A stretch of DNA of 23,918 nt from a virus, in UHGV virus genome UHGV-0186982, one strand, 5' to 3'. The position numbers and the translations under genes are program-made. Below, piece after piece: positions 5 through 13,389 of the stretch; within the stretch, counting starts at the first letter, position 1; every line of letters starts with the position of its first letter. The notes under the pieces were generated by a model that saw nothing but the letters and a program-made list of their open reading frames with translations, searched no databases and was not told where the DNA came from.

Positions 5-78
5 GGCGCGTTAGCAAAGCGGTTATGTAGCGGATTGCAAATCCGTCTAGTCCGGTTCGACTCCGGAACGCGCCTCCA
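5..78 (+). tRNA. cysT: tRNA-Cys (anticodon GCA)
   Basis: 74 nt matching enterobacterial tRNA-Cys almost base for base as I recall it (ggcgcgttagcaaagcgg...gaacgcgcctcca); anticodon loop ttgcaaa; ends in CCA. Confidence 0.9.
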
Positions 79-91
79 ATTTACATCCCGA

Positions 92-177
92 GCCCGGATG
101 GTGGAATCGGTAGACACAAGGGATTTAAAATCCCTCGGCCATAGGCTGTACGAGTTCAAGTCTCGTTCCGGGTACCA
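92..177 (+). tRNA. leuZ: tRNA-Leu (anticodon TAA), long variable arm; likely carries the prophage att core at its 3' end
   Basis: gcccggatggtggaatcggtagacacaagggatttaaaatccc is the canonical 5' half of enterobacterial tRNA-Leu(UAA); T-arm cgagttcaagtctcg; acceptor 3' strand plus CCA at 175..177. Confidence 0.85.
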
Positions 178-311: not shown

Positions 312-1319
312 CTACCTGACCTCTTCACGATTATCAAAAGGGTTTAACGCAACGGCAGCATCAAGATGATTGGGGGCGAAATGCGCATACCTCATCGTCA
401 TCATGATCGTACTGTGCCCGAGTATCTGCTGAAGCACTAAAATATTCCCCCCACGCATCATAAAGTGACTTGCGAAGGTATGGCGTAGTACATGGGTACG
501 CTGCCCCCTTGGCAACTCAATAGCGGCTCGTGCAAGCGCTGATTTGAATGCTTCGTATGCTGGAGTAAAAAGTGCTCCGCGTTTTTTGGGTAGCAGCTTC
601 TGTAGCTGTTCAGAAATCGGTACAGTTCGATTTTTTTTGCTTTTGGTCTGCGTAAACGTCAACCGGCCAGGCAGAACCTGAGATTGCTTTAAATCCTGCG
701 CCTCGCTCCACCTTGCGCCGGTCGCCAGGCATATCCGCACTATGACCCCCAAATCCTTATTTGCCGATTGATCGCAGGCCGACAAAAGTCGCACTATCTC
801 CTCATCGTAGAGGAAGGCCAGCTCCTGATCCCCCTCCTTGAATTGCCTGATGCCCGACAGTGGGTTATCGCCCTCCCATTCACCCAACCGCTTCATCTCT
901 GAAAAAACCGCGTGCAGGTACGACTGCTCGCGATTTACCGTCGCCTCACTGAGTTTCTTTTTGCCTTTCTGATTCCACTCACCGGCCAATCGTTTTTCAC
1001 GATAAACCGCAAATGTATTTTTATCGAAGCGAGACGCGAGGGGATCGCCCAGGCGCTCGCAAATCGCCAATAACTTCACCTTGCGTTCATCCCCAGATGT
1101 TAGCGTTTTGCCGTGCATTTCGTACCAGCGCTCAACGAAAGCAGAAAGCGTCACCGCGCTGTCGTTTACCTCCTGACTAGTTGCGTTGTTCATGGTGCGG
1201 CGCTCAAAAGAGAGCGCCTCGCCTTTGGTAGCAAACTGCTTACGAATACGCTTTCCGTCACGACCATACGGAAAGCACTGGCATAACCATTTTCCTGATG
1301 TGAGCTTACGAACGGTCAT
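312..1319 (-). CDS. int: Tyrosine recombinase, P2-type phage integrase
   Basis: N-terminus MTVRKLTSGKW...GRDGKRIRKQF and C-terminal HVLRHTFAS...LGHSTIMMTMRYAH (R..HxxR..Y catalytic region). Start placed at the Met matching the P2 Int N-terminal pattern; the longer ORF back to 1403 would overlap the upstream gene by about 100 nt. Confidence 0.9.
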   Translation of the reverse strand: MTVRKLTSGKWLCQCFPYGRDGKRIRKQFATKGEALSFERRTMNNATSQEVNDSAVTLSAFVERWYEMHGKTLTSGDERKVKLLAICERLGDPLASRFDKNTFAVYREKRLAGEWNQKGKKKLSEATVNREQSYLHAVFSEMKRLGEWEGDNPLSGIRQFKEGDQELAFLYDEEIVRLLSACDQSANKDLGVIVRICLATGARWSEAQDLKQSQVLPGRLTFTQTKSKKNRTVPISEQLQKLLPKKRGALFTPAYEAFKSALARAAIELPRGQRTHVLRHTFASHFMMRGGNILVLQQILGHSTIMMTMRYAHFAPNHLDAAVALNPFDNREEVR

Positions 1320-2502
1320 AATTGAACAAATCCACAAATTTAGGCACTTGCTCTGATTTCCTCTCCCAGTAACACCCAGACTGAAGCAATGATATGAAAT
1401 CATCTTGGGTCATTGAGAGTGTACTTGTTGTTATCAGGCGTTTTTTGGTCTCGTCTGGAGTCAAAAGCTCAACCGTAACAGTACCCGGATCATATGATTG
1501 GCTTTCCATGAGGATTGGTGCATCAGTTAGTTTTCTGGGGGTAATTAGACGATTAGGGTTGAAATCACCAGTAAAGCTTCCTTCAAATGATGCGATGGTC
1601 TCGTAACCGGAGAAACAGTCAAATTGTATTTGCAATACCATCGCATGAGGTAATGTTAAAAACTCACTCCAATCTGTGTAGCCTAATTTGTCACTATAAA
1701 AAGTATCGCCGCGCTGGAACTGGTAAGACGTTCCTTGCGTCCATACATCATAGGTGTTTTTTTCAAATGTTATTTTAGTTAGTTTAATGTCTAGCTTGCT
1801 TTTGAATACTTCTTTGATTGCGAATTTCCATCCGGCTGCATAGCCATCAATAAAGTTTGCAATAAGGGCGGTGCTTCTACGAGGCTCTCTTAACGTTCTA
1901 AATGTAAGGGATAGTGCTTCCAAATCTTTTTTCAGCGAATCTACTTCGGAAGTGATTTTCTCTTCATGAATAACATCTAGCTCAGGCGCTTCGTAGGGAA
2001 TCTCACCAGTCTCTATAAAGGCGATGAACTGTTCTTTGCTTATGATAAAGGCGTTTCGAGCCCTTGCCTCTTCAATCTTCCTCCACCCCATATTATCCCC
2101 TACGCAAAGGAAATATAGGTTTGCAGAAACACCGCCTTTAACAGATAAGTTGTTATTCTTCGCTAATTCGGTTAAATATGCTTTGTCAGCCTGCTTAAAA
2201 CCAGTAAAACAGATTTCTAAATTATTTCCTCTTTCCAATTTACGACTAGGGCGTGGCTGCGTTTTCGGTACGATGGATTCTTTGTCCAAAGTAGCATTAA
2301 GCAATTCATCTTCCGACATGAACATTTTCAGAACTCGATCTTTTCTAAAAGTCCTGAATGCCTTTCGATTAATAGAGTAGCCTTGGAAAAACTCATCTCG
2401 CTCAACTACGCGAGTTACACTTTGCCGTGACACCTCTCCTTTGACATTGATGTAATGGAAGAAAGCATTTTTATCTTCATTGATAAGAGATGAATCAAAC
2501 AT
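1306..2502 (-). CDS. Hypothetical 398-aa protein with a BRCT-like central domain; moron inside the repressor-integrase operon
   Basis: Long ORF in an AT-rich block; strong SD (aaggagtg) 7-8 nt upstream of the ATG at 2502; 14-nt overlap with the int start; central segment NLEICFTGFKQ...VSANLYFLCVGDNMGWRKIEEARARNAFIISKEQFIAFI has the BRCT pattern seen at the C-terminus of NAD-dependent DNA ligase. Confidence 0.75.
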   Translation of the reverse strand: MFDSSLINEDKNAFFHYINVKGEVSRQSVTRVVERDEFFQGYSINRKAFRTFRKDRVLKMFMSEDELLNATLDKESIVPKTQPRPSRKLERGNNLEICFTGFKQADKAYLTELAKNNNLSVKGGVSANLYFLCVGDNMGWRKIEEARARNAFIISKEQFIAFIETGEIPYEAPELDVIHEEKITSEVDSLKKDLEALSLTFRTLREPRRSTALIANFIDGYAAGWKFAIKEVFKSKLDIKLTKITFEKNTYDVWTQGTSYQFQRGDTFYSDKLGYTDWSEFLTLPHAMVLQIQFDCFSGYETIASFEGSFTGDFNPNRLITPRKLTDAPILMESQSYDPGTVTVELLTPDETKKRLITTSTLSMTQDDFISLLQSGCYWERKSEQVPKFVDLFNYDRS

Positions 2503-2544
2503 TTATCACTCCTTTATTTTTTTAATTGGCTCTAATTCTGTGAA

Positions 2545-2898
2545 TTAATCGTCACCAGTTTTTACTCGTGGCTTTGATTGCGCAAACGCATCACCAACCG
2601 CCTGTATGTTTAAGCGCGCCGCCTCATCCATCGCGCGGTAGTTTTCTATGAGTTTTTTTTCTTCTTCGCTTTCCGTGACCATGCCATCTGGTTGGAGGGT
2701 CCGTTGCCCAGTAAGTACATACAATATATCAACCCCGATTTTTGCCAGTGCCGAGAGGTATTTTGCATCTGGTGATCTCTCATCTCGTTCGTAGTAGGCC
2801 TGAGAACCACGTGACTGTTCTGCCAGTTTGGCAAAATCTGTTTGATTTAATCCGAGTTTATCCCGCTCCTCGCGAAGCCTGCTTCCGAATGTGGACAT
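2545..2898 (-). CDS. Immunity repressor, HTH XRE-family (cI/C-like)
   Basis: N-terminal HTH LGLNQTDFAKLAEQSRGSQAYYERDE; divergent from the early operon; immediately upstream of int in the same orientation, as in P2 and 186. Confidence 0.8.
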   Translation of the reverse strand: MSTFGSRLREERDKLGLNQTDFAKLAEQSRGSQAYYERDERSPDAKYLSALAKIGVDILYVLTGQRTLQPDGMVTESEEEKKLIENYRAMDEAARLNIQAVGDAFAQSKPRVKTGDD

Positions 2899-6540: not shown

Positions 6541-7653
6541 TTGGCTCCCGATGGGCTGTCTCGCCTTTCGTGTTTTCTCTGTGGTGTGGGAGGCGCTGTG
6601 GTTGCTTATTACAACGAAATAGACCCTCACGCAGCACAGCACCTGCGCAACCTTATCGACGCCGGCCATATTGCGCCGGGCGTCGTTGACACCCGTTCAA
6701 TTGAGGATGTAACCCCCAATGACCTTATCGGATTCAATCAGTGCCATTTCTTCGCCGGGATCGGCGGATGGTCGCTTGCCTTACGCCGCGCAGGATGGCC
6801 AGACAGTCGCCCGGCATGGACAGCATCATGCCCATGCCAGCCTTTCAGCGCGGCAGGCAAAGGACTTGGGTTTGCTGACGAGCGGCACTTATGGCCCTCC
6901 GCACATTGGCTTGTCGGCCAGCGCCGCCCTGTCGTGGTTTTTGGCGAGCAATCTGGCAGCGCTGACGCAGCGGACTGGATCGACCTTGTACAAGCTGACG
7001 TGGAAGCCCTGGGCTATGCCTTCGGGGCGGTTGCGTTTCCGTCTGCGAGCGTCGGCGCGCCGCACCAGAGAGACCGCGCTTATTGGGTGGCCGACGCCGG
7101 CCGCGAACGAGTTCGAACCGAAGGACTTGCAAAGGCTCTTGGAGAGAAGGGAGAAATTCGCGGCCAAGCATGGAAACAACGGGTTTGGCCTGACACTAGG
7201 GCAGGCGGTGCATCTGTTTGCGGGCTGGCCGACACCGACGGCAACGGACGGGAAAGGCGGTTATCAGGGTGGACGAATCCGCAATGGGAAGCTATCGACG
7301 GACAGGCTAGATGTGGCTGCGCAGCTTGCGGGCTGGCCGACGCCGACCACGAGCAACGACCGCTCGCCATGTCCGCAAGAGGCTATGCGGACGTATCGCG
7401 ACAATGGAACAAAGATTCAGAAGCGGCTTCAGGATGTAGCTGCGTTATGCGGCCCGGCCCGGTTAACGGCTTCTGGAGAGATGCTGATTGGCTCCACGGC
7501 CGGGATGGATGGTGGAGGCCAGTTAGACCCGGATCATTCCCGCTGGCTGATGGGATTCCCGCCAGAGTGGGAAGAGTGCGCGCCTACGGAAACGCTATCA
7601 ACATTGAAGCGGCGGCAGCGTTCATAAAAGCGTATATGGCGGCGGAACAATGA
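6541..7653 (+). CDS. DNA cytosine-5 methyltransferase, apparently frameshifted (motifs split between two frames)
   Basis: Frame 1 has motif I-like FLCGVGG, NEID, PCQPFS (motif IV), PHQRDR (motif VIII) and C-terminal GNAINIEAAAAFIKAY (motif X); the overlapping frame 6719..7627 has WPTP repeats and RWLMGFPPEW (motif IX). Stop overlaps the A start (ATGA). Confidence 0.6.
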   Translation: MAPDGLSRLSCFLCGVGGAVVAYYNEIDPHAAQHLRNLIDAGHIAPGVVDTRSIEDVTPNDLIGFNQCHFFAGIGGWSLALRRAGWPDSRPAWTASCPCQPFSAAGKGLGFADERHLWPSAHWLVGQRRPVVVFGEQSGSADAADWIDLVQADVEALGYAFGAVAFPSASVGAPHQRDRAYWVADAGRERVRTEGLAKALGEKGEIRGQAWKQRVWPDTRAGGASVCGLADTDGNGRERRLSGWTNPQWEAIDGQARCGCAACGLADADHEQRPLAMSARGYADVSRQWNKDSEAASGCSCVMRPGPVNGFWRDADWLHGRDGWWRPVRPGSFPLADGIPARVGRVRAYGNAINIEAAAAFIKAYMAAEQ

Positions 7654-10133
7654 CCGCCGCATCAACTGCACCTCACATCGCGCAGCCAGCTCGCGCTGAC
7701 GCCACCCGGTATGATTACGAGTGGCAGAAGCCGAGACCTGCCATTTATGTTGATAAGACTCCTGCTGTTGATCTGGTTGAACTTGGTCAAGAGAAGGAGT
7801 TTTTGGCGTGGGTAAAAGTCACCCTTGCGCCGCTACCTCGCTTTATTCGCCTGCGTCTGGCTTCCCGCGTCGACAGCATTCACACCATGAAGGGCAGACA
7901 CATCGCCCGCCTGGCGCTGCGCGATATCATCCGCAGGGATCTGCCGCCTATCAATATGGTTAATGAGCAATATGCTATTGCGATGACCGATGAGGCTAAA
8001 TCTCAGGCCGATACGGCATTTAAGGGGTTAAACCCGCTTTATCACACGTTTAACACCCTGCATGGGCTGGTTGAGCGCTTTAATCGCCTGCCGGATTTCA
8101 CGCCGGAAGATGTCGAGCTGCTGGCGCAGGATATCGCCATCTATATGCGGTCTGTGCTGAGTGAAGTTCACGAAACTATAGAGACGCAGAGTGATCGCAA
8201 ATATGCCGGGTACCTTTACACCGAAGCGGCCATCCTCGCGCGGCTTTTCTTCCTGACGCCACCGAGCTGGGGAAAGTATTGTCGCGGCGCGTTGTTTATT
8301 GACGAAGCTACTACCGGCATCAGCAAGATGCTGGATGATCGCTACTGGCACCGCAACCTGAAAAAGTACGCCACGCGCTGGCGCGAGCATCTGCACATTG
8401 CTTTTGGCGATGTGAAACGGGGTGCTGCACCGTATTGCAGCAAGCACCACGTTGACGAGTGGGACGCCAGGCGCAAGCGCAGCCGCGCGATCATGGCCCG
8501 CCTTGAACTGGAAGACCAGGATACCAAAGAGCGCATTTCACTTATCGAGCAGATCGATAAGAGCATATCTAACCCGGCGTTGCGCCGCGTTGAACTTATG
8601 ACCCGTATCGGCGGCTTTGAGAAAGTCGCCACCGAAAGCGGCTACGCGGGTCAGTTTTTTACCCTGACAGCGCCATCCAAATACCACGCATATACCGTAT
8701 TCGGTCATCGTAATGCCAAATGGAACGGCGCCAGCCCAAGATCCACGCAGCGCTACCTTAATCGGGTATGGCAGAAAATCCGCGCAGAGCTGGCCCGCCG
8801 CGAAATCCCGGTTTTTGGTCTGCGCGTGGCCGAGTCTCACCACGACGGTACGCCGCACTGGCATGGCCTGCTGTTCTCTTTGCCGGAACATTCCGCCGAG
8901 CTACTGGAAGTGATGGAAGACTACGCCACCCGCGAGGACGCGGAAGAGTTACAGGGTAAGCATGGCAACCAGCCGCGCTTTGACATGAAGCCTATCGATC
9001 ATGAAATCGGCAGCGCCACCGGCTACGTGGTGAAGTACATCAGTAAGAATATTGATGGCTATGCGCTCGATGGTGAAACTGACGACGAGAGCGGCCGGCC
9101 ACTCAAAGAAACATCTAAACATGCTACTGCCTGGGCTTCATGCTGGGGTATCCGTCAGTTTCAGTTTTTAGGCGGCGCGCCGGTGTCTGTCTGGCGCGAG
9201 TTGCGCCGGTTCCGCAATCAGGAGCAGGCCGACAAGATAAACCCACTGTTTGCCGAGCTACACCGCGCGGCCGATGCTGGCGACTGGCAGCAATACACTC
9301 AATTACAGGGGGGCGCACTGGTTGCCCGCCGCGATCTGCCGCTGCGTATCTGGTACCAGCAGAAAGACGAGCCGAATGATTACGGTGAATATCGCGACCT
9401 CATCAAAGGCCTGATGATGCCAGCCGTTCAGATCCCCCCCATTGAAACCCGCCTGCATTCCTACTCAATCGTAAGGAAGAAACCGGAGGTTTTAGACGAC
9501 TCCGGGCAGGCAGTTGACTTTGATTTTGACCTTCCGGGCGCGTCTGCGCCCTCTAGGACTCGTGTCAATAACTGTACCGAGGTTAAAAAACGAACAAATC
9601 AGCCCCCCGGATCACCGCCATTAATGACAGTGCCAGCTGAGCGGGAAGAGCCTGAACAGTTCGAGATCGGTCAGTTAACACGCGAACAGCGAAAACAGGC
9701 GTTTGAAAGCATCCATAACCACAAACCGCAGCGGCATAAATCCCCCGCCGATGAGTTTGAGGCGCTGGCGTACAGCATTACCGTCGGCGACTGTACAGAA
9801 TTTGACACCCGCAGGGCAGAAAGTTATCTCAAGGCCGCCCAGGAGATTAGGCGGAGAGAACAGGTTTTATCACCGGAAATCGCCGGACTGGCGGGCTTAG
9901 TTCAGTCATGGGCGAAAGTGAAGAAGGTGCTGATCAGTAAACCGCAGGCTATACAGCTGGCGCGCGGTAATGAAGTGACGGTGCTGGATACGGTATATCG
10001 AGCGCATCCGGTTACGGGTGAGTTGATCATTGCAGGCGTTGATAAACCGTGGCGCAAAACTCTTGCAGATCATAAGGCCGGCGAGCTAGCGGCTCGCTGG
10101 AAGAAGGCAGCTAAACGGAAAAATGAGAGGTAA
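7650..10133 (+). CDS. A: Replication initiation endonuclease, P2 gpA family (rolling-circle HUH nickase)
   Basis: HUH motif TPHWHGLLF and catalytic tyrosine motif GYVVKYISKNIDGY; 827 aa; position after the early genes. Confidence 0.9.
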   Translation: MTAASTAPHIAQPARADATRYDYEWQKPRPAIYVDKTPAVDLVELGQEKEFLAWVKVTLAPLPRFIRLRLASRVDSIHTMKGRHIARLALRDIIRRDLPPINMVNEQYAIAMTDEAKSQADTAFKGLNPLYHTFNTLHGLVERFNRLPDFTPEDVELLAQDIAIYMRSVLSEVHETIETQSDRKYAGYLYTEAAILARLFFLTPPSWGKYCRGALFIDEATTGISKMLDDRYWHRNLKKYATRWREHLHIAFGDVKRGAAPYCSKHHVDEWDARRKRSRAIMARLELEDQDTKERISLIEQIDKSISNPALRRVELMTRIGGFEKVATESGYAGQFFTLTAPSKYHAYTVFGHRNAKWNGASPRSTQRYLNRVWQKIRAELARREIPVFGLRVAESHHDGTPHWHGLLFSLPEHSAELLEVMEDYATREDAEELQGKHGNQPRFDMKPIDHEIGSATGYVVKYISKNIDGYALDGETDDESGRPLKETSKHATAWASCWGIRQFQFLGGAPVSVWRELRRFRNQEQADKINPLFAELHRAADAGDWQQYTQLQGGALVARRDLPLRIWYQQKDEPNDYGEYRDLIKGLMMPAVQIPPIETRLHSYSIVRKKPEVLDDSGQAVDFDFDLPGASAPSRTRVNNCTEVKKRTNQPPGSPPLMTVPAEREEPEQFEIGQLTREQRKQAFESIHNHKPQRHKSPADEFEALAYSITVGDCTEFDTRRAESYLKAAQEIRRREQVLSPEIAGLAGLVQSWAKVKKVLISKPQAIQLARGNEVTVLDTVYRAHPVTGELIIAGVDKPWRKTLADHKAGELAARWKKAAKRKNER

Positions 10134-10135
10134 AC

Positions 10136-10693
10136 ATGAAGCATTTCAGCACTAAAGCAATCAGATCAGTTATCGCCGAAATGAACCGGCAGGACGAGAA
10201 ATGGGGAGCTGACCGCGATCAACATCCGTTCGTCTGGCAAACCATTCTTAGCGGAGAGGTCGGCGAATTCAGCCAGGCAATTTTACATGATGAATTTGGA
10301 GGCCATAAATCAGGAACGGCACGCGAAGAGATGGTGCAGATCGCCGCCGTCGCTCTCCAGATTATCGAATATTACGATCGCCGCTGCGCGCCTGCGGCGG
10401 AATCTGAACAAGTTCACCCGGCGCTCGCCATGCCGGCCATCCCGGCGGGGCGTGAAAAAATCGGCGGCTGCGACTGGCTGGACTGGAATCAGCTGTCAGC
10501 GCTCGGTCTTATTGTCCGCATTAACGCAGAAATTCTTCACCCGCTTGGACTGGCAATTTTCCGTGATCCGGCTTCCGGCATCTCAGCGGGGGCCATGATT
10601 TCGCCAGATGGTAAATGGGAGTATGCGCCTGATGTTATTGATGGGCTGCGGGTAAGACTCTCCGATCACTCAGGAAAGCACGGTCACTTTTGA
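10136..10693 (+). CDS. Hypothetical protein, possible MazG-like nucleotide pyrophosphohydrolase N-terminal domain
   Basis: SD gagagg before ATG; LSGEVGEF...AREEMVQIAAVALQIIEYY resembles the paired acidic helices of MazG/HisE-type all-alpha NTP-PPases; C-terminal 100 aa unassigned. Confidence 0.45.
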   Translation: MKHFSTKAIRSVIAEMNRQDEKWGADRDQHPFVWQTILSGEVGEFSQAILHDEFGGHKSGTAREEMVQIAAVALQIIEYYDRRCAPAAESEQVHPALAMPAIPAGREKIGGCDWLDWNQLSALGLIVRINAEILHPLGLAIFRDPASGISAGAMISPDGKWEYAPDVIDGLRVRLSDHSGKHGHF

Positions 10694-10769
10694 CCGTGCT
10701 GGCCATTCTATCGAGCACCGCCATTTTTGGCGGTGCTGCAGGTGTTATTTTTTGGGGAGCGAGAAGGCT

Positions 10770-11465
10770 ATGAGTTATCTGGGAAGCAAAGCGGCCAGCG
10801 GTGTTTATCAAAAAATCATCGCTGAAATGCCGCCGCACGATACCTACATTGAAACGCATTTAGGCGGCGGCGCGATCATGCTGCGCAAACCTCCGGCAAA
10901 AGTGAATTGGGGGATCGATATCGACCCGCAAACCATCGAGGCGTTTAACCAGAGCAACCCTGATTTTCTGGATAGGATGGCGGACACCCTATTTATTGAT
11001 GTTGGGGATGCCGTCGAGTTCTTGTGTTGTTTCGATTACGCCTCCGCCGGCCGCGTCTTAATTTATTCTGATCCGCCTTATCTCCATGAAACGCGCTCCA
11101 GCTCCGCGCGCTATCGGCATGAGTACACCGTTGGTGATCATTACCGCCTGCTGGGATTACTCTGCTCGATGCCGGAAAACGTGAGCGTAATCGTATCGGG
11201 GTATCCTTCTTCGGTTTATGACAACGCCCTGCCGCGCTGGCGCAGCAAGGAGTTTCAGGCCATGACGCGCGGCGGCGTTCGTACAGAGAAAATCTGGATG
11301 AACTACCCGGAAGGCCGGGCGTATTCGCACGCGTTCGCCGGTAAAGACTACAACGATCGCTATCGGATTAAACGAAAAGCGCAGAGATGGAAGGAAAAAT
11401 TTGCAGCGTTACCACCCGCCGAGAGGTTGGCGATCATGGTGGCGCTTGGTGAGGTCGAAATTTGA
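10770..11465 (+). CDS. DNA N6-adenine methyltransferase (second D12/Dam-like MTase)
   Basis: N-terminal YLGSKA and catalytic YSDPPY; ATG at 10770 preceded by gagaagg (track ORF starts at upstream TTG 10752). Confidence 0.8.
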   Translation: MSYLGSKAASGVYQKIIAEMPPHDTYIETHLGGGAIMLRKPPAKVNWGIDIDPQTIEAFNQSNPDFLDRMADTLFIDVGDAVEFLCCFDYASAGRVLIYSDPPYLHETRSSSARYRHEYTVGDHYRLLGLLCSMPENVSVIVSGYPSSVYDNALPRWRSKEFQAMTRGGVRTEKIWMNYPEGRAYSHAFAGKDYNDRYRIKRKAQRWKEKFAALPPAERLAIMVALGEVEI

Positions 11466-11583
11466 TTACGTTATTTAATGGAAGAATGATTGTTGTGTGG
11501 TTGATGTTTGCCACTAGTATTGCTATTGTCTATTCATTGTTTGATGCTTGTTTGAGTCTAAATAGAAATCTAATGGTGAAAAT

Positions 11584-11937
11584 ATGTTAAATAATCAGGA
11601 TTATGCTTTCATTAACAATACAGTAAATTCAATTAAATCAACAATGATCAGCCTTGCTAGTGAGTACGGCCCTGATTATTGTTCAGATTTTCTGATTACG
11701 TTCGAATCAATTAAAAACAATACGAGTCGGCTACGACTAACGGATGTGACCATTAACGAATACATATCGCTTATTCGTGGTCATAACATGAACGTTCAGA
11801 GCCATCCACAAGGATTGCTGGTACAAGCTCACGTTAGCTCGATTTTGCTGGCTCCGAATGATGCTGTGGCCCTATCGAATTCTCTCCAGATGTTTCGTGG
11901 CCGCGCAGCCCTCAACGGCGATTACGAGAACATCTAA
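11584..11937 (+). CDS. Hypothetical 117-aa protein in an AT-rich island at the tin/old-equivalent position beside cos
   Basis: Clean ORF in a sharply AT-rich block (about 11466..11940) flanked by GC-rich phage sequence; no recognisable motif. Confidence 0.55.
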   Translation: MLNNQDYAFINNTVNSIKSTMISLASEYGPDYCSDFLITFESIKNNTSRLRLTDVTINEYISLIRGHNMNVQSHPQGLLVQAHVSSILLAPNDAVALSNSLQMFRGRAALNGDYENI

Positions 11938-12082
11938 GCACGAAACGAAATGGTTTTCTATCGCGCAAACTTGCACAAATTTGCACAATTTTTGAAACGA
12001 TGTTTTTGCTATGCAGCGCCAGCACTGGCGGGGCATGGGCAGTCTGCGCAGAGTGCACAAAAAGAGGCATGTTTAGCGCGCA

Positions 12083-12101
12083 GGCGAGGCGGGGGAGCAA
12101 G
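12083..12101. other. cos site (cohesive-end region) of the P2-like genome
   Basis: ggcgaggcgggggagcaag followed by cgcgcgct closely resembles the P2 cos 19-nt end GGCGAGGCGGGGAAAGCAC-TGCGCGCT as I recall it; correct position just upstream of the minus-strand portal gene. Confidence 0.55.
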
Positions 12102-12336
12102 CGCGCGCTTTGGGGGTAGGGAAGGGGTCGGTATACCTCGCCAAAAGCTGCCTGCCGGGCGCGCACTTTCGCGGTGCATCCGGCGAGCGCGTAGGAAAAA
12201 GCCCGCCAGAGTGGCGCTGGCTGCGTCTGGTTGGTGATATGACATTGAAGTGTTGCAGGTTGGCCGACATGGCCAGGAATGGTGATGCTGCAGGTCGGTA
12301 CTGCACCGCCGGGAATGGCAGTGCGGTACCTTCAGA

Positions 12337-13389
12337 TCACTTCGGGGTTTCCAGCAGGGCGTAAGGGTTGAAGCGGATCACCTCTTCACCGAGCCAGTCG
12401 TTAACATGCTTCATCGCTTCCATGACCGGTGTCAGTTCGTTGACCGCGAATACCCTGGCTGCCTTCTCGACGTCGCCGAATGATCCGTTGCCTTCAGGTA
12501 TGGCGCCCATCAGTTGCGGCGGCACGCGGTGAGCCGCAAGCATGTCGTCACGCGTGGAGGACTTCACACCCACAAACTCATCCTTTGCCGATATCTGGCT
12601 GAAGGGCAGGATCTGCACGGCATCTTTGCCGACACCGGGCGCACTCAGCAGGATGTTTTTAAATGCCCCGCCGCGCCGGGTATCGGTCAATGTCTTCTTC
12701 AGGTTCTCCAGGCTTTCCCCGTCAGCCACTGCGCTGCTGACGTAGACAATACAGCCGGCATGCGACCCGTTGTCGTAGTAGAGCTTGCGGAACTTGTCGG
12801 CGGAGTGCGCCAGGTTCGCCGACAGCAGGCCGGCGAAATACTCCGGCATGCCGTAGATCTCCTGGTGAATATCCGGGTTGATCACATGGCACACCGAACC
12901 GGTTTCGAACGGGTGGTCATCAAGGCCAGACTGAATAAACCAGTAGGTGTCTAGGTCGGAACCGCGCCGGGTGTACTTCGCCAGCGAGTTACGAAAGCCC
13001 ATTGGCCCATTCAGGCGGTTGCGCCGCATCTCAAGGTACGCATTGCCGAACACAAACCAGTCGAGCGCAAAGGCGCTGAACGCCTGGCGCGATAACAGTT
13101 TGTGCGGGATAAAGCATCCGGCCAGCACGTTACGCTTGAAGAACAGCGCCGACTGGTGCCAGCTCGCATAGCCGAACTGGCGGGCCAGTCCGTACCAGCT
13201 GATCGGCGTCTCGTAGTACCGGCCATTATTGGCGCAGTACATGTTATCCAGCAGGTCATGAGCACCGGTCACCGGCCACGGGCCGTCGAACGTGAACGCG
13301 CTCAGGCCGGGGGCCGACTTCAGCGCGTCGGCGAGGTCGGCTTGCTCTCTGGCATACTGCCTGCCGCGCGGGGATTTTCGTCTGCTCAT
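12337..13389 (-). CDS. Q: Portal (capsid portal vertex) protein, P2 gpQ family
   Basis: 350 aa; first gene after cos on the minus strand; start overlaps the P stop (TGATG); P2 synteny. Confidence 0.85.
   Translation of the reverse strand: MSRRKSPRGRQYAREQADLADALKSAPGLSAFTFDGPWPVTGAHDLLDNMYCANNGRYYETPISWYGLARQFGYASWHQSALFFKRNVLAGCFIPHKLLSRQAFSAFALDWFVFGNAYLEMRRNRLNGPMGFRNSLAKYTRRGSDLDTYWFIQSGLDDHPFETGSVCHVINPDIHQEIYGMPEYFAGLLSANLAHSADKFRKLYYDNGSHAGCIVYVSSAVADGESLENLKKTLTDTRRGGAFKNILLSAPGVGKDAVQILPFSQISAKDEFVGVKSSTRDDMLAAHRVPPQLMGAIPEGNGSFGDVEKAARVFAVNELTPVMEAMKHVNDWLGEEVIRFNPYALLETPK

Follow-up and report, generated by a model that had tools for sequence, protein, structure and literature searches.

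Several genes of phage P2, namely old, tin and fun, are expressed in the lysogen and exclude other phages, and they constitute AT-rich cargo carried in fixed slots of the genome (Vassallo et al. 2022, PMC9519451). In P2-related prophages of the Vibrionaceae, the interval between the repressor gene cI and the integrase gene int is a defence hotspot, in which restriction-modification (RM), Septu, Helicase+DUF2290 and PARIS systems are found (Rousset et al. 2022, PMC9122126). Vibrio phage K139 is likewise P2-related and has accessory genes between cI and int; its database record (NC_003313) gives a mapped lysogenic promoter, PL, that drives cI-orf2-glo-int, in which orf2 encodes a BRCT protein and glo is a phage exclusion gene. 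Here we consider a gene in the corresponding interval of UHGV-0186982, a viral genome sequence of 23,918 nucleotides, the whole of which is referred to as the window. The window contains a P2/186-like prophage, as judged from its gpA (2e-99), a Dam-type methylase and an Rv2179c-like exonuclease. The gene (1306-2502, minus strand) encodes a protein of 398 amino acids (aa) that joins a WYL-like unit, a BRCT domain and a linker helix to a novel C-terminal domain, and we consider this protein a good candidate for a new anti-phage protein.

The gene follows an immunity repressor of 117 aa (2545-2898, minus strand), which is the first gene of the leftward operon, has a helix-turn-helix (HTH) domain (Pfam HTH_3, 8.6e-07) and matches transcriptional repressor families in PHROG. 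It is followed in turn by a tyrosine integrase of 335 aa (312-1319, minus strand; Pfam Int_N 7.4e-32, Phage_integrase 4.2e-23), the start of which was deduced from homologues of 335 aa and from the sequence. The spacer between the repressor stop codon and the 398-aa gene measures 42 nt and includes a Shine-Dalgarno sequence (AAGGAG, 2509-2514, minus strand), read from the sequence 6 nt upstream of the ATG, and a consensus scan located no terminator-like site between the two genes. At the other end, int starts (ATG at 1319, MTVRKL...) 14 nt inside the open reading frame (ORF) of the 398-aa gene, the stop codon of which occupies positions 1306-1308. The spacer holds a single sigma-70-like site (TTCACA-17-AAAAAT, matching at 9 of 12 positions), which is not evidence for a separate promoter because shuffled sequence yields more such matches than were observed; a promoter of its own could still lie there. 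In composition the gene is AT-rich, with a GC content of 0.37-0.43 compared with 0.52-0.53 for the integrase and 0.54-0.64 for the late genes. All of this agrees with a sequence-only reading of the locus, which had described an AT-rich ORF between repressor and integrase with a strong Shine-Dalgarno sequence of its own, no terminator and a 14-nt overlap with int, and had predicted co-transcription with the repressor from these features. The short spacer, the missing terminator, the Shine-Dalgarno sequence and the int overlap, together with the annotation of K139, suggest that the gene would indeed be transcribed with the repressor in the lysogen.

Among 5.8 billion proteins searched, 26 clusters of homologues were recovered, mostly full-length and 43-97% identical to the 398-aa protein, whose named sources are Enterobacterales without exception. 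Their alignment shows no frame disruption and has 60 invariant columns, and the protein matches PHROG 36782 (function unknown) along its full length (2.5e-74). The exact repressor protein of the window is found in at least eight prophages with differing early regions, and in 8/8 of these mosaics the 398-aa gene and int follow, beside pgsA and uvrC. Among these copies of the gene, synonymous divergence (dS) reaches 0.27 and the ratio of nonsynonymous to synonymous substitution (dN/dS) is 0.08-0.11, and therefore the gene is under strong purifying selection. In this lineage the gene belongs invariably to the immunity-integration module and is not a sporadic insertion; furthermore, a short form consisting of the WYL-BRCT half is a common lysogeny-operon gene in P2-like phages (Peduoviridae). 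A profile search of genome contigs with the full-length alignment (A1) recovered 4 loci. Some disrupted versions were also seen: three viral contigs (L052, L054, L055) have a frameshifted allele that yields a WYL piece of 100 aa and a BRCT plus C-terminal piece of 328 aa, and 325 sequences of the protein collection belong to a truncated form of 329 aa (P0024), while complete Escherichia coli genomes have the intact 398-aa version.

The division of the protein into three parts, proposed from the sequence, holds. AlphaFold2, applied to the family alignment, gives a model (predicted local distance difference test, pLDDT, 77) with a five-stranded beta unit at residues 13-61, a beta-alpha unit at 96-165, a long helix at 173-200 and a beta-rich domain at 215-391. 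No match had been recognised for the N-terminal 90 residues, and here the picture changes, as they appear to contain a WYL-like beta-barrel (residues ~10-66; 2305-2475, minus strand) with the motif FRTFRKDRV. The five strands are modelled with a pLDDT of 78-89; Pfam WYL (PF13280) matches 6/25 homologues (best E 1e-4), the window copy not being among them; a profile of the N-terminal half scores 92.6% (4.5e-7) by hhalign against the WYL-bearing protein P0072 and 74.6% against a WYL protein of another locus (L023); and one short homologue of the N-terminal half bears a precomputed PF13280 assignment.

The BRCT-like centre was correctly recognised, and is a BRCT domain of the ligase type (residues ~94-168; 1999-2223, minus strand). 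The model has the order strand-helix-strand-strand-helix-strand-helix and forms a parallel four-stranded sheet with helices on its flanks, as in the BRCT fold, and Pfam BRCT (PF00533) matches 25/25 family members with a best E of 1.7e-14, although the window copy alone scores 17.9 bits, under the cut-off of 21.3. Residues T100-G101 and K142, which align to the TG and K of the BRCT domain of Thermus LigA, are conserved throughout the family: G101 and K142 are invariant both in A1 and in an alignment of the N-terminal half (A4), and T100 is nearly invariant in the former and invariant in the latter. The phosphate pocket of BRCT domains (Ser/Thr-Gly after strand 1 and Lys opening helix 2) appears intact by these alignments and is a putative ligand site. 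An acidic linker helix (residues 173-200; 1903-1986, minus strand) follows in the AlphaFold2 model, the segment 171-203 having an isoelectric point (pI) of 4.4.

The BRCT domain of LigA, the NAD-dependent DNA ligase, is the best sequence relative of this central domain and shares with it the phosphate-pocket motif TG...GxK; however, adenylation, OB, zinc-finger and helix-hairpin-helix (HhH) domains are all missing from the window protein. Identity as a DNA ligase was rejected, since the NCBIfam LigA models match residues 41-168 only, that is, the BRCT region, with scores (22.4 and 19.6 bits) below the respective cut-offs of 1051 and 444, and Pfam finds no other ligase domain in the protein. 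A membrane or pore protein was rejected too, there being no hydrophobic segment (the maximum 19-residue Kyte-Doolittle window is 0.92); the protein as a whole is soluble and acidic. Alone, the N-terminal WYL-BRCT half forms a small protein of wide distribution, with at least 240 clusters in a profile search (a single-sequence search gave 4 matches and was replaced by the profile), and these short homologues are often annotated as 'DNA ligase'.

The C-terminal part (residues ~201-391; 1330-1902, minus strand), with the motifs RRxxLIAxFxDGYAxGWxFAV, ALDI, WTQG and LLQxG, is an independent, discrete domain that is widespread but undescribed, and a putative novel fold; we refer to it as C-dom. When residues 196-398 were searched against 1.84 billion representative proteins, 413 clusters were found, 121 of them under E 1e-10, and most are stand-alone proteins of 150-230 aa. 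There is no Pfam family for C-dom, 43 members giving scattered chance matches only, and among all PDB sequences, searched by phmmer and with a 43-sequence profile, nothing better than E 0.17 was obtained. Conserved polar residues are few (R209, D238, T255, Q256, Q366 and Q374) and make up no known catalytic signature. The sequence-only reading was right that this part has no recognisable catalytic motif; it is, however, a domain and not an orphan tail. C-dom was not found by tblastn in any of 50,697 sequenced phage isolates; one weak match to a stand-alone relative (E 4e-4 over 75 residues) was noted in Pseudoalteromonas phage vB_Psp_PY3 (L076, 2006-3115), in a hypothetical gene of 369 aa between the integrase and a LexA-family repressor. 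A protein of 1559 aa (P0140) without Pfam match has 10 separate stretches resembling the long beta-hairpin part of C-dom, and may be a repeat protein made of this hairpin or a spurious low-complexity match.

C-dom is coupled to its partners in several ways. It is fused to the WYL-BRCT half in the window and in more than 20 loci, it is encoded by a separate gene adjacent to, and often overlapping, the WYL-BRCT gene in five (L007, L026, L029, L030, L043), and in P0072 the order is permuted, with C-dom preceding WYL. In 16 loci the neighbour of a stand-alone C-dom, on either side, is a SWIM zinc-finger protein some 115 aa long, and fusions of the two occur in both orders (P0069, P0115, P0147). 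C-dom genes are also found beside BRCT proteins of the K139 Orf2 type, as in a group of prophages typified by L048, or fused to one (P0102). Because fused, split, permuted, SWIM and Orf2-like arrangements all occur, C-dom is the constant part and its partners are interchangeable nucleic-acid-binding or interaction modules. In P0123, C-dom is fused to a region like PD-T4-7 (8.3e-12), a validated RelE-like abortive-infection defence gene; the window protein itself does not match the PD-T4-7 model. Two SWIM and C-dom pairs lie within larger operons, one (L023, 1351-5580) comprising a RecD2-like superfamily 1 (SF1) helicase, a WYL protein, SWIM and C-dom, and the other (L038, 713-2274) SWIM, C-dom and a DnaQ/RNase T-like exonuclease.

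The genomic position is recurrent, lying behind lysogeny repressors that belong to at least four families (HTH_3, 186-type CI, S24/LexA-like and XRE). The fused gene or split pair comes after a lysogeny repressor of the HTH_3 type in the window, Yersinia and Pectobacterium, and after an S24/LexA-like repressor in Oceanisphaera and four further loci (L007, L029, L030, L051), with the integrase usually one or two genes downstream. In Yersinia ruckeri the short WYL-BRCT form follows a 186-type CI, in Vibrio phage PV94 it follows a CI-like (HTH) repressor, and in a Burkholderia phage it lies one gene past an XRE regulator. Homologues have an Old nuclease (9e-70) as a neighbour in this slot, and in L007 (8804-11380) an ABC-3C-type conflict system (DUF2326, MC6/MC8, CTD12) stands between the split pair and the integrase. 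Six viral contigs (L048-L050, L053, L056, L057) have, between a 392-aa homologue and int (~6645-7568), a further BRCT protein that is 294-305 aa long and shares 35% identity with K139 Orf2, and contigs of this type have in addition a 203-aa protein between repressor and homologue, the Pectobacterium counterpart of which (L005) is recorded as Flk_N-like; therefore the slot can hold three cargo genes. Other positions are known. In E. coli the gene is rare (3/5,426 complete genomes) and is situated at the opposite end of a P2-like prophage, with ytfP on one side and Hok/Gef-ogr on the other; every E. coli homologue at this ytfP locus (L001-L004, L014, L082), whether the P2-like element is a prophage or a remnant, has one or two Hok/Gef toxin genes adjoining it at the ogr end. 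In Serratia rubidaea the gene lies in an island near a tRNA locus with no adjacent repressor or integrase ORF, and some SWIM and C-dom pairs have no integrase nearby.

The slot of the window gene and the phage group are thus those of the Vibrionaceae hotspot, and Old and ABC-3C-type genes adjoin the homologues described here, although no BRCT protein was found in those parts of the text and supplements of PMC9122126 that were examined. The likeness to P2 old, tin and fun does not extend to sequence or domains, nor to location, since these occupy the A-Q and Z/fun slots rather than the C-int slot, and the Old, Tin and Fun models of PADLOC do not match the window protein. K139 Glo is periplasmic and unrelated to it. 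Membership of the K139 Orf2 family was rejected, as BLASTP covers 42 residues of the BRCT domain only (E 0.005) and the C-dom profile reaches a probability of 0.3% against Orf2 by hhalign. WYL domains have been proposed as ligand sensors of defence systems, and WYL-BRCT fusions have been listed (Makarova et al. 2014, PMC4012209); typical WYL regulators are winged HTH (wHTH) transcription factors, whereas the window protein is without an HTH and has a novel C-terminal domain. The expectation that no characterised antiphage family would match was borne out in PADLOC-DB v2.0.0, where the sole match was to the candidate PDC-S48 (4.3e-05; residues 62-164 against model positions 303-406 of 411). That match is restricted to the BRCT end of the model, the same segment matches unrelated BRCT proteins, and PDC-S48 is itself an unvalidated candidate. 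We found no description of the family in the literature on BRCT, WYL or SWIM with phage defence.

From this context we give an even chance to the reading that the 398-aa protein is expressed in the lysogen, senses DNA structure and acts in exclusion or defence. It would be a cytoplasmic accessory protein made during lysogeny from the repressor-integrase operon, and its most likely role would be to guard the lysogen against other phages, through either superinfection exclusion or abortive defence. The N-terminal half, with its WYL-like barrel and ligase-type BRCT domain, would read a feature typical of foreign DNA that has been injected or is replicating, for example single-stranded stretches, nicks with a 5'-phosphate or cohesive ends. 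The acidic helix would join this half to C-dom as a constant output module, which, because it looks non-enzymatic, probably binds or blocks a replication, ligation or recombination protein, or assembles on DNA. Of this picture, the domain composition, the coupling of the modules, the hotspot position and the purifying selection are shown by the analysis, and lysogenic transcription, ligand, output and phenotype are predicted. We count in favour of a defence function the independence of C-dom, its coupling to interchangeable partners (among them the PD-T4-7-like region), the place behind the repressor, the AT-rich composition, the rare and patchy distribution, and the location in a documented hotspot slot that elsewhere holds Old, ABC-3C-type genes and K139 glo. 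Several points weigh against it. Transcription from the lysogenic promoter is predicted from the sequence and the K139 annotation; the tight linkage to the repressor in 8/8 mosaics fits a function related to lysogeny equally well; outside the BRCT segment the protein is not covered by any PADLOC 2023 model, and a stand-alone C-dom protein (P0033) has no PADLOC match; the PD-T4-7-like fusion is a single representative cluster; and the output step is a guess, because no nuclease, NTPase or other catalytic signature was recognised in C-dom and the domain is acidic (pI 5.1). More tentatively, and with rather more doubt than belief, we propose that the protein is the fused form of an undescribed modular immune family, in which a novel-fold C-dom output would be combined with interchangeable DNA readers (WYL-BRCT, SWIM or K139-Orf2-like BRCT) within the repressor operon and would detect the nicks, ends or single-stranded DNA (ssDNA) of incoming phage.

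An accessory role in the lysogeny or induction of the prophage itself, whereby WYL and BRCT would sense DNA damage or replication stress and adjust the repressor, excision or integration, seems to us unlikely, although a good deal of the same evidence can be read in this way. Such a protein could let SOS-unresponsive repressors sense damage, and a place after repressors of different families, translational coupling to int, retention alongside this repressor allele in every one of the mosaic prophages and the frequency of the short WYL-BRCT form in the lysogeny operons of P2-like phages would all be expected of it. The WYL regulators PafBC and DriD, moreover, respond to ssDNA after damage. The protein has, however, no sequence-specific DNA-binding domain such as an HTH, and the reference phages P2 and 186 are not known to carry the gene; homologues are also found at the ogr/att end of the E. 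coli prophages, in the Serratia island and in SWIM pairs with no integrase nearby; and both the defence cargo that otherwise fills the slot and the AT-rich composition, which suggests acquired cargo, point elsewhere.

An accessory role in DNA repair or damage tolerance to the benefit of the host (lysogenic conversion), in which the protein would bind nicks or gaps and recruit or shield repair enzymes, is less probable still. The retained phosphate pocket of the ligase-like BRCT domain would suit it, as would the RecD2-like helicase and DnaQ/RNase T-like exonuclease of the two larger C-dom operons, but these neighbours are single examples and are typical of defence systems as well. No catalytic repair domain is present in the protein, the LigA model matches of which are confined to the BRCT domain, and the gene is rarer than would be expected of a repair function of general use. 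We think it very improbable that the protein is a counter-defence factor, for instance one that acts as a ligase decoy or DNA-end decoy and so protects prophage or phage DNA against a host defence system. Phages do encode many BRCT-bearing proteins, and C-dom is acidic like some DNA-mimic inhibitors; the gene lies, however, in the leftward lysogeny operon and not in an early lytic operon, C-dom is present in prophages and absent from the phage isolates searched, and known anti-defence families are unmatched except for a chance-level hit to Tad8 in 1/25 members (E 0.15).

The remainder of the window holds other features of interest. A tRNA-Cys and a tRNA-Leu (5-177, plus strand; ARAGORN) at the integrase end are likely the flank of the attachment site, and in related loci the same tRNA flank runs on into pgsA-uvrC. 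In the classical P2 cargo slot (10136-12237), bounded by gpA at 7650-10133 and by the portal gene at 12337-13389 (minus strand), there are ORFs of 185, 237 and 117 aa. The second of these contains DPPY, a motif that is typical of N6-adenine methyltransferases, and all three may be more accessory or defence genes. Just before gpA, at 6541-7653, is a GC-rich ORF (0.62-0.64; 302-370 aa according to the start chosen) with no Pfam match, and sister prophages have at this position either a PF00145 cytosine methylase or a PAPS-reductase-like gene.

Should the 398-aa protein prove to act in defence, a family whose three domains include no recognisable enzyme would be added to those known, together with a new protein fold, and the cI-int hotspot would reach beyond Vibrio to the P2-like prophages of enterobacteria. 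K139 orf2 and hundreds of small WYL-BRCT genes mislabelled as DNA ligase would also gain a testable function, and, should the modular immune family be real, K139 orf2 and the short WYL-BRCT genes of P2-like phages would share the same defence logic. If the protein instead tunes lysogeny, it would represent a new accessory class in the repressor operon of P2-like phages. BRCT is a classic module of eukaryotic DNA-damage signalling, and its use by bacteria in a sensor for immunity or lysogeny would offer a useful comparison.

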